A DNA stretch of 48,656 nt from a virus (lineage: Duplodnaviria; Heunggongvirae; Uroviricota; Caudoviricetes), in the IMG/VR virus record IMGVR_UViG_2534681762_000009, positions 1-48,656 of that record; one strand, 5' to 3'. Positions 42,817 through 48,656 of the stretch are shown in pieces (within the stretch, counting starts at the first letter, position 1; each line of letters opens with the position of its first letter). Made by a program: the position numbers and the translations under genes. The notes under the pieces are model-generated. The model did no database searches. It was not told where the DNA came from and worked only from the letters and a program-made list of their open reading frames with translations.

Positions 42817-43416
42817 ATGCGTAAATTATGTGCTGTTATTTTGTCCGCAGTAGTCTGGCAGGTCGCCGCTGCTACGCCAGCGAGTGCAGCAGAACATCAG
42901 TCCACGCTGAGCGCGGGGTATCTCCATGCCTCGACGAACGTTCCCGGTAGTGATGATCTGAACGGGATTAACGTGAAATACCGTTATGAGTTTACGGACG
43001 CGCTGGGGCTGATTACGTCCTTCAGTTATGCCAATGCTGAGGATGAGCAAAAAACGCGCTACAGCGATACCCGCTGGCATGAAGATTCCGTGCGTAACCG
43101 CTGGTTCAGCGTGATGGCGGGGCCGTCTGTACGCGTGAATGAATGGTTCAGCGCGTATTCGATGGCGGGTGTGGCTTACAGCCGTGTGTCGACTTTCTCC
43201 GGGGATTATCTCCGCGTAACTGACAACAAGGGGAAAACGCACGATGTGCTGACCGGAAGTGATGACGGTCGCCACAGCAACACGTCTCTGGCGTGGGGGG
43301 CTGGCGTGCAGTTTAACCCGACCGAATCCGTGACCATTGACCTTGCTTATGAAGGTTCCGGTAGTGGCGACTGGCGATCGGATGCATTTATTGTTGGTAT
43401 CGGATACCGTTTCTGA
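42817..43416 (+). CDS. lom: Outer membrane β-barrel protein Lom (Ail/Lom family)
   Basis: 199-aa ORF with signal peptide (MRKLCAVILSAVVWQVAAATPASA) and C-terminal aromatic residue (…GIGYRF) typical of OMP barrels; Lom position after J. Confidence 0.9.
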   Translation: MRKLCAVILSAVVWQVAAATPASAAEHQSTLSAGYLHASTNVPGSDDLNGINVKYRYEFTDALGLITSFSYANAEDEQKTRYSDTRWHEDSVRNRWFSVMAGPSVRVNEWFSAYSMAGVAYSRVSTFSGDYLRVTDNKGKTHDVLTGSDDGRHSNTSLAWGAGVQFNPTESVTIDLAYEGSGSGDWRSDAFIVGIGYRF

Positions 43417-43521
43417 CAACAGACGCCGATTTATCTTCTGTAAATATTGTTATGATACGCAGGTTCATCCACCTTATGGGGTGAACTGCGTTTGAGGAAA
43501 CGTAAAGTTACACTGTCCTGA

Positions 43522-43556
43522 AGCCCGTGGCGTCACTGCTGCGGGCTTTTTTTATT
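43522..43556 (+). terminator. Rho-independent terminator after lom
   Basis: AGCCCG-loop-CGGGCT followed by TTTTTTTATT. Confidence 0.55.
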
Positions 43557-43567
43557 GGTGGAAAAGT

Positions 43568-46500
43568 ATGACAGTAAAAATTTCTGGCGTGCTTAAAGAT
43601 GGCACAGGAAAACCAGTACAGAACTGCACCATTGTGCTGAAGGCCAGACGAACCAGCAGCACGGTGGTGGTGAACACGGTGGCCTCTGAAAATCCGGATG
43701 AAGCCGGACGTTACAGCATGGATGTTGAGCATGGTCAGTACAGCGTCACCCTGCTGGTTGAAGGTTTTCCGCCTTCACATGCCGGGACCATTACCGTCTA
43801 TGAAGGTTCCAGACCAGGTACGCTGAATGATTTTCTCGGTGCCATGACGGAGGATGATGTCCGACCGGAGGCACTGCGCCGCTTTGAGCAGATGGTGGAA
43901 GAAGTGTCACGTAACGCCTCCGCGGTTGCACAGAATACGGCAGCCGCGAAAAAATCAGCCAGCGATGCCAGTGCATCAGCCAGCGAGGCGGTAACTCATG
44001 CAACCGATGCTGCAGCCTCAGCACGTGCCGCCAGCACGTCAGCCGGACAGGCCGCGTCGTCGGCTCAGTCAGCGTCTTCCAGCGCAGGAACGGCATCGAC
44101 AAAGGCCCGTGAAGCAGCAAAAAGTGCTGCTGCTGCAGAGTCATCAAAAAGCGCGGCAGCTACCAGCGCCAGTGCCGCGAAAACGTCAGAAACGAATGCC
44201 GCAGCATCACAAAAATCGGCAGCCACTTCTGCATCCACAGCGACCACGAAGGCGTCAGAAGCTGCCACCTCGGCACGGGGTGCGGCGGCCTCAAAAGAGG
44301 CAGCGAAATCTTCAGAAACGAATGCATCATCAAGTGCCAGTAGTGCAGCTTCCTCGGCAACGGCGGCAGGAAATTCCGCGAAGGCGGCAAAGACGTCCGA
44401 GACGAACGCCAGGTCTTCTGAAACGGCAGCGGGACAGAGTGCCTCAGCTGCGGCAGGCTCAAAAACAGCGGCTGCATCATCTGCCAGTGCCGCGTCAACA
44501 AGTGCCGGGCAGGCCTCAGCCAGTGCCACCGCCGCCGGAAAATCGGCAGAAAGCGCCGCATCATCCGCTTCAACAGCCACAACGAAGGCTGGCAAAGCCA
44601 CTGAACAGGCCAGTGCAGCAGCAAGGTCTGCTTCCGCAGCGAAGACATCCGAGACGAACGCGAAAGCGTCGGAAACCAGCGCAGAATCCTCAAAAACGGC
44701 TGCCGCATCGTCCGCCAGTTCGGCGGCGTCATCGGCATCATCGGCGTCAGCTTCAAAAGATGAGGCGACCAGACAGGCGTCAGCAGCGAAGGGCAGCGCC
44801 ACGACAGCATCCACGAAGGCGACAGAGGCAGCTGGCAGTGCGACGGCGGCAGCACAGAGCAAAAGTACGGCGGAATCCGCGGCAACGCGCGCCGAGACAG
44901 CGGCAAAACGGGCAGAGGATATTGCATCCGCCGTGGCGCTTGAGGATGCAAGTACGACGAAAAAGGGGATAGTACAGCTCAGCAGTGCGACCAACAGCAC
45001 ATCTGAAACGCTTGCCGCGACACCGAAGGCAGTTAAAGCAGCGAATGACAATGCGAATGGCAGGGTACCATCTAACCGAAAAGTTAACGGGAAAGCACTG
45101 ACTGCGGATATAACATTAACACCGAAAGATATTGGCACTTTAAATTCAGTAACGATCTCTTTCTCTGGCGGGGCAGGGTGGTTCAAACTGGCAACGGTTA
45201 CCATGCCACAAGCGAGTTCCATCGTTTACATCGCATTGATTGGTGGCGCTGGTTACAACGTCGGCTCCCCACAGCAGGCAGGCATTTCAGAACTGGTTCT
45301 ACGAGCAGGCAATGGAAAGCCCAAAGGGATTACCGGAGCTTTGTGGAAGCGTACAGCCGTCGGATTAACGAATTTCGCCTGGATCAACACATCCGGCGAT
45401 ACATATGATATTTACGTTGAGATTGGCAATTATGCGACGAGTGTAAATATCCATTGGGATTGTACTACAAATGCGTCAGTTTCTATTTATACCTCGCCAA
45501 CATATTCAGCGAGTAAGCCTTCCAGCGTTACCGGTGGTGTTGTTTATACGATGTATAGCTCACATCAGAAACCTACACCATCAGATATTGGAGCGCTGCC
45601 AACGACTGGAGGGACTATTTCAGGTCCGTTGTCTGTTACTGATGGGATCACCGGGGCACTGAAGGGGAACGCCGATACCGCGACGAAACTTGCGGCAGCC
45701 CCAAAAATTAACGGTGTTAAGTTTGATGGCTCGGCGGATATTAACCTCACGTCGGAAAATATTGGTGCATTTGCCCGACGTTCGACGGGGGCTTATGCGG
45801 ATTCGGATGGAGCCGTTCCCTGGAATGCCGAATCAGGCGCTTACAATGTCACCCGCTCTGGCGACAGCTATATTCTGGTTAACTTCTATACCGGAGTCGG
45901 AAGTTGCCGGACCCTGCAGATGAAGGCGCATTACAGAAATCGTGGTCTGTTCTACCGTTCTTCAAGAGACGGTTATGGTTTTGAGGAAGACTGGGCAGAA
46001 GTTTATACCTCGAAAAATCTTCCACCAGAAAGCTACCCAGTTGGCGCACCAATCCCGTGGCCATCAGATACCGTTCCGTCTGGTTATGCCCTGATGCAGG
46101 GGCAGACTTTTAACAAATCTGCCTAGCCGAAACTTGCAGCCGCTTATCCGTCAGGCGTGATCCCTGATATGCGTGGCTGGACGATTAAGGGCAAACCTGC
46201 CAGTGGTCGGGCCGTATTGTCTCAGGAACAGGACGGCATTAAATCGCATACCCACAGCGCCAGCGCATCCAGTACGGATTTGGGGACGAAAACCACATCG
46301 TCGTTTGATTACGGCACTAAATCCACGAATAACACCGGGGCGCATACGCACAGTCTGAGTGGCTCTACGGGGTCTGCCGGTGTTCATACTCATGGTAATG
46401 GTATTCGTTGGCCAGGAGGCGGCGGTTCTGCGTTAGCATTTTATGATGGCGGTGGGTTCACTTATGTCCAGAATTCACAGTATCAAGTAAGCCCGGGGAC

Positions 46501-46738
46501 TTCTTCCTATAGATCGTATTATCAACGTATTCAGACACAGTCAGCAGGTGCTCATACCCACTCGCTGTCTGGTACTGCAGCAAGTTCTGGCGCACATGCA
46601 CATACTGTAGGTATTGGTGCGCATACGCACTCCGTTGCGATTGGTTCACATGGACACACCATCACCGTTAACGCTGCGGGTAACGCGGAAAACACCGTCA
46701 AAAACATCGCATTTAACTATATTGTGAGGCTTGCATAA
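43568..46738 (+). pseudogene. stf: Side tail fibre (Stf-like) interrupted by in-frame amber codon at 46124-46126
   Basis: 852-aa ORF ends …[12 protein letters not shown]; reading continues in the same frame as [28 protein letters not shown]… through the His-rich C-terminal domain to 46738; the C-terminal domain ORF begins only with a GTG 31 nt after the stop. Confidence 0.7.
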
Positions 46739-47322
46739 TGGCATTCAGAATGAGTGAACAAGCACGGACCATAAAAATTTATAATCTGCTGGCCGGAACT
46801 AATGAATTTATTGGTGAAGGTGACGCATATATTCCGCCTCATACAGGTCTGCCAGCAAACAGTACCGATATTGCACCGCCAGATATTCCGGCTGGCTTTG
46901 TGGCTGTTTTCAACAGTGATGAGGCATCGTGGCATCTCGTTGAAGATCATCGGGGTAAAACGGTTTATGACGTAGCTTCCGGCGACGCGTTATTTATTTC
47001 TGAACTCGGCTTATTACCGGAAAATGTTACCTGGTTATCGCCGGAAGGGGAGTTTCAGAAGTGGAACGGCACAACCTGGGTGAAAGATGCAGAAGCAGAA
47101 AAACTGTTCCGGATCCGGGAGGCGGAAGAAACAAAAAACAACCTGATGCAGGTAGCCAGTGAGCATATTGCGCCGCTTCAGGATGCTGCAGATCTGGAAA
47201 TTGCAACGGAGGAAGAAACCTCATTGCTGGAAGCCTGGAAAAAGTATCGGGTGTTGCTGAACCGTGTTGATACATCAACTGCACCTGATATTGAGTGGCC
47301 TACGAACCCTGTCAGGGAGTAA
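46738..47322 (+). CDS. tfa: Tail fibre assembly protein (Tfa-like)
   Basis: 194-aa ORF ATGA-like coupled to stf end; typical Tfa N-terminus ([17 protein letters not shown]…). Confidence 0.85.
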
Positions 47323-47376
47323 TCATTGGGATTATGCCGCAGCACGTCTTAAGCAAGAACGTGCTGCGGTTGGATG

Positions 47377-48045
47377 CTATTTTTTCCCTGAAGCGGAAAA
47401 CATTACTACAGTACCTTGAACCTTGGTTTTAACATTCTCGAAATGCTCTGAGAGTATATGTGTTAAGCCTTCTTCGGAATCTTTTGTGTTTGAAAAGATG
47501 CCTTTCTGATTGTAAATGCGCATCAGTTTTTGACCGAAGCTATTGTGCACAACTCCATCGCCAAGAATTGTGGCTCCGTATAGAGTTCCATCGTCAGTTA
47601 AGGCCTGCGCCGCATTGCGTATTACACAGCTTTTTGTAGATATATTTCCAGGCAGGCAGTGAAGAAGGTAAAACATGGAAATGGAATCAAATTGACCATG
47701 TAACGCCGCGGGATAAGGTTCAAAAACATCATGGCTAATTTTATGTTTAATTTTTGATTCCCCAGCCCTTGTAGATGCCGCGTTCAGGCTAGCTTCGTTC
47801 AAATCCATTAAAGATATCAGACTACTCTCAGGTACGTGAGTAAGGTAAAACCCAGTTCCAACACCAATATCCAGATGGTTGTTACCTACATGTTCCAGAA
47901 AGTGTGGAAGAAGGTGTTCCTTTGTAGGACATCCCCATGCAAGCCGATTTGATACTCCCAAAACCCACCAGTCATAAAGCTTTAGGGTAAGTGGTGTGTA
48001 AATTTTAGCCCCATCATCTGTGTTTTTTTTCATTGATTTCACCAT
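47377..48045 (-). CDS. Class I SAM-dependent methyltransferase (cargo gene)
   Basis: 222-aa ORF with Rossmann motif I (LDIGVGTGFY) and acidic residue at end of β2 (LMDLNEASL); opposite strand to tail genes; AT-rich; bracketed by duplicated tfa 3' sequences. Confidence 0.75.
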   Translation of the reverse strand: MVKSMKKNTDDGAKIYTPLTLKLYDWWVLGVSNRLAWGCPTKEHLLPHFLEHVGNNHLDIGVGTGFYLTHVPESSLISLMDLNEASLNAASTRAGESKIKHKISHDVFEPYPAALHGQFDSISMFYLLHCLPGNISTKSCVIRNAAQALTDDGTLYGATILGDGVVHNSFGQKLMRIYNQKGIFSNTKDSEEGLTHILSEHFENVKTKVQGTVVMFSASGKK

Positions 48046-48101
48046 GTTATAGTTTTATTTGTGAATTAAATCAATTATGGCGATGAATTACAAGGGGTTA
48101 A

Positions 48102-48371
48102 ATGCTGCCGCAGCATAGCGATATTGAAATAGCCTGGTATGCTTCGATACAGCAGGAGCCGAATGGCTGGAAGACCGTCACCACACAGTTCTACATCCAG
48201 GAATTCAGTGAGTATATTGCGCCACTGCAGGATGCTGTAGATCTGGAAATCGCAACGGAGGAAGAAAGATCGTTGCTGGAGGCATGGAATAAATATCGGG
48301 TATTGTTGAATCGTGTTGATACATCAACTGCACCTGATATTGAGTGGCCTGCAAATCCTGTCAGGGAGTAA
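48102..48371 (+). CDS. Second Tfa-like C-terminal domain protein (possibly truncated paralogue)
   Basis: 89-aa ORF whose C-terminal 60 aa are near-identical to Tfa C-terminus (IAPLQDA(A/V)DLEIATEEE…[15 protein letters not shown](T/A)NPVRE). Confidence 0.55.
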
Positions 48372-48374
48372 TCA

Positions 48375-48656
48375 TTGGGATTATGCCGCAGACACGTCGT
48401 ATGCAGGAACGTGCTGCGGTTAGTTTGTGAGCTTTCGATAGTGGTTGTTATTTTTGCCCTTATTTGTTCCGGAGGCCATGGTTCAATGGTCCGTCTGCCC
48501 CCTGTGGTGATGTCAGCAAAATCAGCCACTGCGCGAACCACAATAGCCCGGGAAGATGCTGAAGATCACCAGGTAAAGCTATCAGCGCAGAAACTGGAAG
48601 AACTGCTCGCATCAATGGTTAAGGATGAGGTTGATCGCAATGATGGGATTTATTGA
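48375..48656 (+). CDS. Hypothetical ORF at window end
   Basis: 93-aa ORF ending with stop at 48654-48656; no recognisable motifs; real start uncertain. Confidence 0.2.
   Translation: MGLCRRHVVCRNVLRLVCELSIVVVIFALICSGGHGSMVRLPPVVMSAKSATARTTIAREDAEDHQVKLSAQKLEELLASMVKDEVDRNDGIY

Follow-up and report, generated by a model that had tools for sequence, protein, structure and literature searches.

The 48,656-nucleotide stretch of viral DNA considered here (IMG/VR record IMGVR_UViG_2534681762_000009, referred to in full as the window) opens with a minus-strand integrase gene (1-1131), after which come head and tail genes and then J, lom, stf and tfa. Behind tfa, which encodes a tail fibre assembly protein, lies the subject of this analysis, a gene on the opposite strand for a predicted class I S-adenosylmethionine (SAM)-dependent methyltransferase, which is bracketed by direct repeats of the 3′ end of tfa. 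E. coli 55989 is among the strains in which this sequence forms a lambdoid prophage; beyond it come a DUF4376 pseudogene, a truncated copy of ompW, and then yciE with the trp operon. Judged by sequence context, the cassette is at the extreme right end of an ompW-integrated prophage, the position of the lambda b region. Its features are the following.

46738-47322, plus strand: tfa, full-length gene for tail fibre assembly (194 aa) that closes the late operon; Pfam Caudo_TAP, E=4.8e-44; PHROG 105, E=3.5e-99.
47146-47371, plus strand: direct repeat copy A, comprising the last 177 bp of tfa and 49 bp downstream with hairpin A.
47336-47370, both strands: hairpin A, located where tfa and the methyltransferase gene converge, between their stop codons.
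47377-48045, minus strand: gene for the class I SAM-dependent methyltransferase, a ybcY homologue; intact 222-aa open reading frame (ORF) with Pfam matches and the motif LDIGVGTG.
48102-48371, plus strand: tfa′ (tfaX-like, 89 aa), matching positions 75-130 of the 131 in the Caudo_TAP profile only.
48195-48421, plus strand: direct repeat copy B, comprising the 3′ part of tfa′ and a degenerate hairpin B.

Positions 47146-47371 pair with 48195-48421 as a direct repeat of 227 alignment columns, with 25 mismatches, one gap and 88.5% identity (E=5e-82), and the same pairing was obtained by a repeat search, MAFFT and BLAST. Within the core of the repeat (47152-47371), 24 of 220 positions are mismatched and there is one indel. 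The homology extends 49 bp beyond the tfa stop codon (47322) and ends sharply just 3′ of the hairpin (GCTGCGGTT). The original prediction, made from the sequence alone, had described a repeat of the tfa 3′ end of ~250 bp that ran ~75 bp past tfa and contained few mismatches. Self-comparison confirms that the repeat is real; its size is ~225 bp, it reaches less far beyond tfa than was stated, and the copies have diverged by ~11%.

The hairpin is shared by the two copies in unequal condition. Hairpin A folds with -28.5 kcal/mol (z=-4.5) on the plus strand and -25.4 kcal/mol (z=-4.3) on the minus strand, where it is without a good U-tract, while hairpin B (48385-48420), with 1 nt inserted, is less stable (-22.1 kcal/mol, z=-1.3). 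Lambda has a homologous hairpin after tfa, and alignment with lambda and phage Turner shows that the stem changes are compensatory. From its sequence and position, hairpin A is a probable terminator for both tfa and the methyltransferase gene. In phage Turner, the hairpin stands beside the methyltransferase gene although no tfa sequence adjoins it. Because the module that is shared between different phage contexts starts at the hairpin while the flanks vary, the hairpin is as much a part of the methyltransferase unit as of tfa.

While tfa is equal in length to lambda orf-194, only the C-terminal ~56 residues of tfa′ are Tfa-like, and the N-terminal two-thirds of Tfa are gone. tfa′ was not accepted as a full Tfa family member, its profile match being restricted to the C-terminal part and its NCBI annotation being that of a partial pseudogene. 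Could tfa′ nevertheless be a functional mini tail-fibre chaperone or a second assembly factor, with the whole cassette serving tail-fibre biogenesis? It has 89 open codons with AAGGGG five bases upstream of the ATG, it matches a PHROG family of its own (2341, E=4e-61), and its base differences from tfa fall mostly in synonymous codons (11, versus 7 non-synonymous), although this synonymous excess can predate the truncation. However, the 3′ end of tfa′ depends on its context, with unrelated AT-rich sequence after 'RVDTS' in PhiR26_1, 2G7b, Turner and O157; tfaX of K-12 has an internal stop, and tfa′ is absent from the uropathogenic E. coli (UPEC) strain 26-1, as it is from lambda and from near-isogenic prophages. 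A full-length Tfa with the N-terminal 43 residues of tfa′ was found neither in 50,697 phage records nor in a set of 5.8 billion proteins, in which this sequence occurs in many truncated variants of 23-71 aa only. In addition, translation of tfa′ from its ATG is disfavoured because a predicted plus-strand -10 element overlies that codon. A function for tfa′ is therefore improbable in our judgement. By its sequence, the second, shorter tfa-like ORF of the original prediction is not a gene but the decaying remains of another tfa. The right-hand repeat would then be the leftover 3′ part of an older tfa, remaining after tail-fibre or cargo modules were swapped between phages.

A further trace of the older tfa comes from Rfam. 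Family RF02111 ('IS009') matches the plus strand at 47081-47279 with 225.7 bits (gathering threshold 117) and, in the region of copy B, at 48125-48328 with 112.5 bits; it also matches the K-12 tfaD pseudogene and lambda orf-194. The second alignment starts ~70 bp upstream of the clear repeat, which suggests that diverged tfa homology extends for that distance upstream of copy B, as would fit a truncated tfa. A small RNA was rejected as an explanation of these matches, which sit within tfa coding sequence and reflect tfa coding homology. The family itself appears to model the 3′ third of the tfa coding sequence rather than a small RNA.

Between the relic and the methyltransferase gene is a short spacer, whose signals complete the cassette.

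48046-48101, minus strand: AT-rich spacer upstream of the methyltransferase gene (56 bp, 27% GC), with two overlapping sigma-70-like promoters.
48101-48074, minus strand: promoter-like TTAACC-16-CATAAT, from the promoter scan.
48074-48046, minus strand: promoter-like TTGATT-17-TATAAC, from the sequence; the same pair is listed for the K-12 ybcY<>tfaX spacer.
Within the spacer, plus strand: promoter-like ATGGCG-15-TTAAAT, its -10 element overlapping the tfa′ ATG; the promoter predicted for tfaX.

The methyltransferase gene is oriented leftward, convergent with the late operon. We propose that it would be transcribed from its own sigma-70 promoter in the AT-rich spacer, likely damped by H-NS, that the transcript would end at the hairpin shared with tfa, and that the gene could thus be expressed in the lysogen independently of phage development. 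The corresponding K-12 spacer bound RpoD holoenzyme in vitro, by genomic SELEX (systematic evolution of ligands by exponential enrichment), and was marked as an H-NS site (PMC3946193). The base composition of the gene is deviant, its 41.1% GC lying below the 47.7% of tfa, the 54.1% of stf and the 51.3% of the whole window, and the gene is absent from lambda and from a 99.4%-identical prophage and present in 55989, PhiR26_1 and others. Taken together, the predicted promoter and terminator on either side of the gene, its deviant GC content and its absence from close relatives give the segment the build of a moron, that is, a self-contained unit of predicted promoter, methyltransferase gene and predicted terminator hairpin.

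The moron concept arose from the comparative genomics of phages HK97 and HK022, and lambda lom and bor are examples. Like other lambdoid morons, the cassette is an extra gene found in only some collinear phages, with promoter-like and terminator-like signals, deviant composition and a location at a module boundary. Unlike them, it is bracketed, unusually, by ~225-bp direct repeats of the neighbouring gene.

These repeats have left their mark in natural populations. A predicted recombinant junction of 560 nt, consisting of unique tfa sequence, one repeat and the unique right flank, was compared with 5426 complete E. coli genomes, and 20 of them contain this empty junction as a single contiguous match; the methyltransferase gene, tfa′ and the same right flank occur together in ~816. 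Empty alleles are located at the ompW/yciE/trp site in strains EFF60, 190693, NMBU-W13E19, PigCaeca_2, EC15 and '10', and at the Rac site in rl0044. The prophage of strain 190693 offers the closest comparison, since it resides at the same ompW/yciE/trp site, is 99.4% identical over 6.47 kb of J-lom-stf-tfa, and is without exactly the 1050-bp unit. Copies A and B can be told apart at 33 sites, and all seven of the empty alleles sampled are chimeras with A-type bases on the left and B-type bases on the right. In six of them, the switch falls within 47262-47302, and in the remaining one (EFF60) within 47307-47342. The copies share only two runs of perfect identity of at least 20 bp, one of 39 bp at 47263-47301 and one of ~35 bp at 47308-47342. 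The coincidence of the crossover intervals with the only two long identity runs implies homologous exchange within the repeat, which took place independently at least twice.

Recombination by RecA in E. coli requires roughly 25 bp or more of perfect identity. An exchange of this type between the two direct ~225-bp copies would remove or install the 1050-bp unit, which consists of the methyltransferase gene and one repeat. The sequence comparisons thus support the earlier proposal that the repeats mediate gain or loss of the cassette by homologous recombination. Intrachromosomal deletion is the simplest reading for the near-isogenic pair. Overall, we assign a probability of roughly 0.7 to the account in which a host-derived methyltransferase moron resides behind the tail-fibre genes and is gained and lost through repeats that stem from a tfa relic.

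Several observations weigh against this account or limit its precision. The promoter and terminator are consensus-level predictions, the promoter-scan matches being no commoner than in shuffled sequence, and a start from TTGATT-17-TATAAC leaves next to no leader ahead of the ATG at 48033. The counts of filled and empty alleles are approximate, in that the search joins nearby pieces. Six of the seven empty alleles share one switch interval, and some of the B-type bases scattered through these alleles are probably common variation in tfa. All top matches to the reciprocal junction of a tandem duplication (copy B on the left and copy A on the right) were two joined pieces of the normal arrangement. 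Finally, gain of the cassette by Campbell-type integration or double crossover predicts the same A-left/B-right pattern, which makes the direction of the exchange ambiguous.

This last point leads to an alternative in which the empty arrangement is ancestral and the cassette arrived through one exchange, a single or double crossover between the 3′ end of tfa and DNA of another co-resident lambdoid prophage, instead of being deleted repeatedly within the chromosome. Beyond the chimeric pattern, this is favoured by the location of most of the switches in the same 39-bp run, by the occurrence of empty alleles both at ompW and at the Rac site (beside uspF/ompN), in prophages of several backgrounds, and by the 98.8-100% identity of the methyltransferase module across very different prophages, which suggests recent spread. 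On the other hand, the switch of EFF60 lies in the other run, with this right flank there are about 40 filled alleles for each empty one, and the near-isogenic pair differs by the cassette alone. We regard an ancestral empty state as a possibility, if a rather doubtful one; it competes with the preferred account on direction only, the mechanism being homologous exchange in the repeat either way.

It is very improbable, by comparison, that the cassette is a site-specific or transposable element, whether an insertion sequence or an invertible tail-fibre segment like Mu G, P1 C and e14 P. The tail-fibre regions of many phages do hold invertible segments with duplicated tfa/U genes, and phage Turner has a DNA invertase in this same region. 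As in those segments, tail-fibre-assembly sequence is duplicated behind a fibre gene, and P1 U and SfMu Tfa can be aligned with tfa′ in its C-terminal part. However, the segments of Mu, P1 and e14 have inverted repeats and are switched by Gin, Cin and Pin, which changes the host range, whereas the repeats here are direct and the outcome is deletion or insertion of cargo. Terminal inverted repeats and short target duplications were not found, and the junctions of the empty alleles vary in position, as is expected of homologous recombination. No recombinase-like ORF was recognised in 43000-48656, where most ORFs were not run against family libraries and invertases or transposases were not searched for specifically; among the ORFs searched there, the methyltransferase, tfa and tfa′ alone matched a protein family. 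An invertible segment of the Gin/Cin/Pin type and a transposon were both rejected because the repeats are direct and no recombinase was recognised among the ORFs searched.

The gene between the repeats encodes, by fold and motifs, a class I SAM-dependent methyltransferase, its activity being a prediction. The original prediction of an AT-rich, opposite-strand class I methyltransferase of 222 aa with the motif LDIGVGTG is borne out by the intact ORF, the GC content of 41% and the Pfam matches; the product is likely to be slightly shorter. All 25 homologues aligned start at the fifth residue of the 222-aa ORF, and GGTGA precedes the corresponding ATG at 48033. For these reasons the start is probably at 48033, yielding a protein of 218 aa. 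Across 26 homologues, 61 columns are invariant, including those of motif I (L58-D59-I-G61-V-G63-T-G65) and D81, the acidic residue at the end of strand 2, and an N-terminal motif, YDWWVL..SN..AW.C.T, is conserved and particular to this family. The structure model is a confident Rossmann fold of the seven-stranded alpha/beta type, in which the 218 residues make up the core fold plus one N-terminal helix.

As had been proposed, the substrate is not readable from the sequence. Classification with hidden Markov models gave only generic class I methyltransferase models above the Pfam gathering threshold (Methyltransf_12, 23, 25 and 11), NCBIfam scores reached 16-18 bits against cut-offs of 175-390, so that no family-specific model was attained, and the PHROG family of the protein carries no assigned function. 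Among solved structures, the best sequence match is juvenile-hormone acid O-methyltransferase (profile E=4e-6); the best Foldseek matches are small-molecule or lipid enzymes, and the nearest structural analogues of the same size include the phospholipid N-methyltransferase PmtA and carboxyl O-methyltransferases. The best matches, namely insect JHAMT and bacterial PmtA, BelI/CysG, NodS and RebM, share the core fold and the GxGxG SAM motif with the protein, but only 12-21% identity. On the strength of fold, motifs and homologue contexts, we favour a small molecule or lipid of the host cell, over DNA or the tail fibre, as the predicted substrate, with the odds somewhat better than even.

That the target is instead a macromolecule, such as tRNA or rRNA, a protein, or phage or host DNA, as in an anti-restriction or translation-modifying enzyme, appears unlikely. 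The (D/N/S)PP(Y/F/W) motif of DNA methyltransferases (DPPY/NPPY) does not occur in the 222-aa sequence, the structure model displays no target-recognition or RNA-binding extension, and no named DNA methyltransferase was noticed among the 50-60 structural neighbours listed. A DNA methyltransferase of the N6A/N4C or C5 type was accordingly rejected, the (D/N/S)PP(Y/F/W) form of motif IV being absent from the sequence and an extra domain from the model. The leading sequence and Foldseek matches described above point away from macromolecules as well, the partly deleted ompW-site prophage of strain 300709 has a separate annotated DNA methyltransferase beside Q, and PADLOC returned one marginal match (mad2, E=0.009), which is below significance.

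No functional study of ybcY or tfaX was found in the literature, where they are mentioned in an in-vitro promoter and H-NS listing, in a report of a knockout without phenotype under Hha toxicity, and in connection with incidental deletions. As a tentative suggestion, which we put forward at well below even odds, the methyltransferase may be a lysogenic-conversion enzyme that is expressed from the prophage and methylates a host envelope lipid or a small metabolite, with changes to the cell surface or physiology that help the lysogen to colonise the gut or to resist other phages. Such a role would account for the retention of an intact copy, at 98-100% identity, by ~70% of E. coli genomes, and for its association with ompT, sodC, effector and toxin cargo. 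If the enzyme does modify an envelope component, a widespread function would be added to those known from lysogenic conversion.

The cassette is widespread in E. coli. DNA of the methyltransferase region (47372-48100) is found at 95% identity or more in 3836 of the 5426 genomes, and in 1113 of them at least 80% of 46700-48656, which comprises tfa, the methyltransferase gene and most of tfa′, is matched. Viable phages that carry the cassette include PhiR26_1, PhiR29_1/2, PhiR30_1, 2G7b, ev243, PhiR49_1, Turner and Kati, and in one of these annotations the product is called 'putative uncharacterized protein YbcY'. Lambda and several phages with the same tfa do not have the methyltransferase gene, and lambda proceeds from tfa straight to ea47. 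This distribution, the 99.4%-identical prophage that is devoid of the gene and the homologues in non-phage contexts bear out the view that the methyltransferase is not a part of tail-fibre biogenesis. The left limit of the module common to the different contexts is the start of hairpin A (~47331-47337) and its right limit is 48326, within tfa′; both flanks are variable. On the left are a complete tfa, 170 bp of residual tfa after a different fibre module (2G7b), a block of catalase and ferritin-like genes (O157:H7), or unrelated sequence downstream of a DNA invertase (Turner). On the right are DUF4376′, an alpha/beta hydrolase gene with ompT, IS66, appY, or ompT directly. In seven diverse contexts the methyltransferase ORF is intact and 98.8-100% identical; a frameshift was seen in K-12 only.

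The placement of the gene in an exchangeable cargo slot behind the tail fibre, which was part of the original prediction, is borne out by relatives that carry ea47, catalase and ferritin-like genes, a DNA invertase, or an alpha/beta hydrolase and ompT in this position. In a prophage of the O157:H7 strain FRIK2455, a manganese catalase gene, two ferritin-like genes of the yciE/yciF type and a general stress protein gene lie between tfa and the methyltransferase gene. This four-gene stress cargo resembles yciE-yciF-yciG, which flank the ompW attachment site on the chromosome, and it may have been gained by imprecise excision. In PhiR26_1, 2G7b and Turner, the methyltransferase gene and tfa′ are followed by an alpha/beta hydrolase gene (~465-494 aa) and an omptin gene of the ompT type, after which comes the integrase gene or the record ends. 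The 'chromosomal' ompT region of K-12 looks like the b region of a phage of this type.

A search of 5.8 billion proteins yielded 2296 relatives of the methyltransferase. Homologues with 56-65% identity, in Salmonella, Enterobacter and Yersinia, are monocistronic and occupy unrelated, non-phage chromosomal neighbourhoods, while relatives with 64-79% identity, in Salmonella, Citrobacter and E. albertii, are found amid prophage or island cargo, including PerC, SodC, DinI, SopA, OspG-like kinases and CdtA. No conserved operon partner was found in the neighbourhoods of the homologues, and the neighbours change with every genus. Because the more distant members of the family stand alone on the chromosomes of Enterobacterales, the methyltransferase gene was probably captured from a bacterial chromosome by an ancestral phage, and it looks like a host-type gene that now moves with conversion cargo.

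As an annotated object, the cassette is already known in the form of ybcY/tfaX of K-12. The tfaD-ybcY-tfaX genes of the cryptic K-12 prophage DLP12 have the same order and orientation, ~97% DNA identity from the tfa 3′ end to tfa′, and the same promoter hexamers. All three are pseudogenes in K-12, however, tfaD being without its N terminus, ybcY frameshifted and tfaX interrupted by a stop, and appY and ompT follow; in the prophage described here, tfa and the methyltransferase gene are intact and are followed by the DUF4376 relic and the ompW attachment site. The lambda tfa/b region resembles the locus in having the same 194-aa tfa, a homologous hairpin and then leftward non-essential genes, but it has ea47, ea31 and ea59 in place of the methyltransferase gene and no second tfa fragment.

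This analysis places a very common, uncharacterised E. coli prophage gene in its structural context, as a host-type moron rather than a tail-fibre or DNA-modification function. It also provides a natural example of conserved gene ends and terminator hairpins acting as recombination joints in lambdoid phages, and flags several annotation artefacts, namely the tfaX-type 'genes', a 45-aa 'nucleocapsid/hypothetical protein' ORF and Rfam IS009. The repeat-bounded presence and absence of the cassette is a tidy, unsurprising case of modular phage evolution, and its practical value is modest.

To the right of the cassette, the window ends within a further gene remnant.

48468-48656, plus strand: DUF4376 fragment, a second tail-fibre relic, which runs off the window end; PHROG 7703/1141, 'tail fiber protein'.

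In the enclosing ORF (48375-48656), the match to PHROG 7703/1141 is confined to residues 34-93, the C-terminal 60 residues. NCBI annotates the DUF4376 gene of strain 55989 as having an internal stop and a missing N terminus, and in related genomes the ompW′ attachment-site remnant follows this relic. The stacking of relics suggests serial replacement of the tail-fibre module.

On the left, stf carries a nonsense change (TAC to TAG at 46124-46126), which leaves an 852-aa ORF (43568-46126) and, downstream, a 193-aa tail ORF (46157-46738). The same codon is TAC in 55989, 190693 and 300709, and stf is a single 1056-aa ORF in 55989 and 190693. As read from this sequence, a complete side fibre is probably not made by the prophage; laboratory lambda, with its stf frameshift, offers a parallel. 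In the homologous prophage of E. coli 300709, an internal deletion fuses the terminase large-subunit gene to the tail-fibre gene, a fusion that is annotated as a single 4.2-kb 'terminase gpA endonuclease subunit', and the tfa-methyltransferase-tfa′ end is intact. Finally, a plus-strand ORF of 45 codons (47295-47432), which spans the tfa stop codon, the hairpin and the 3′ end of the methyltransferase gene, is listed as 'hypothetical protein' in RefSeq and as 'nucleocapsid protein' in K-12 derivatives, and is almost certainly a spurious gene call.

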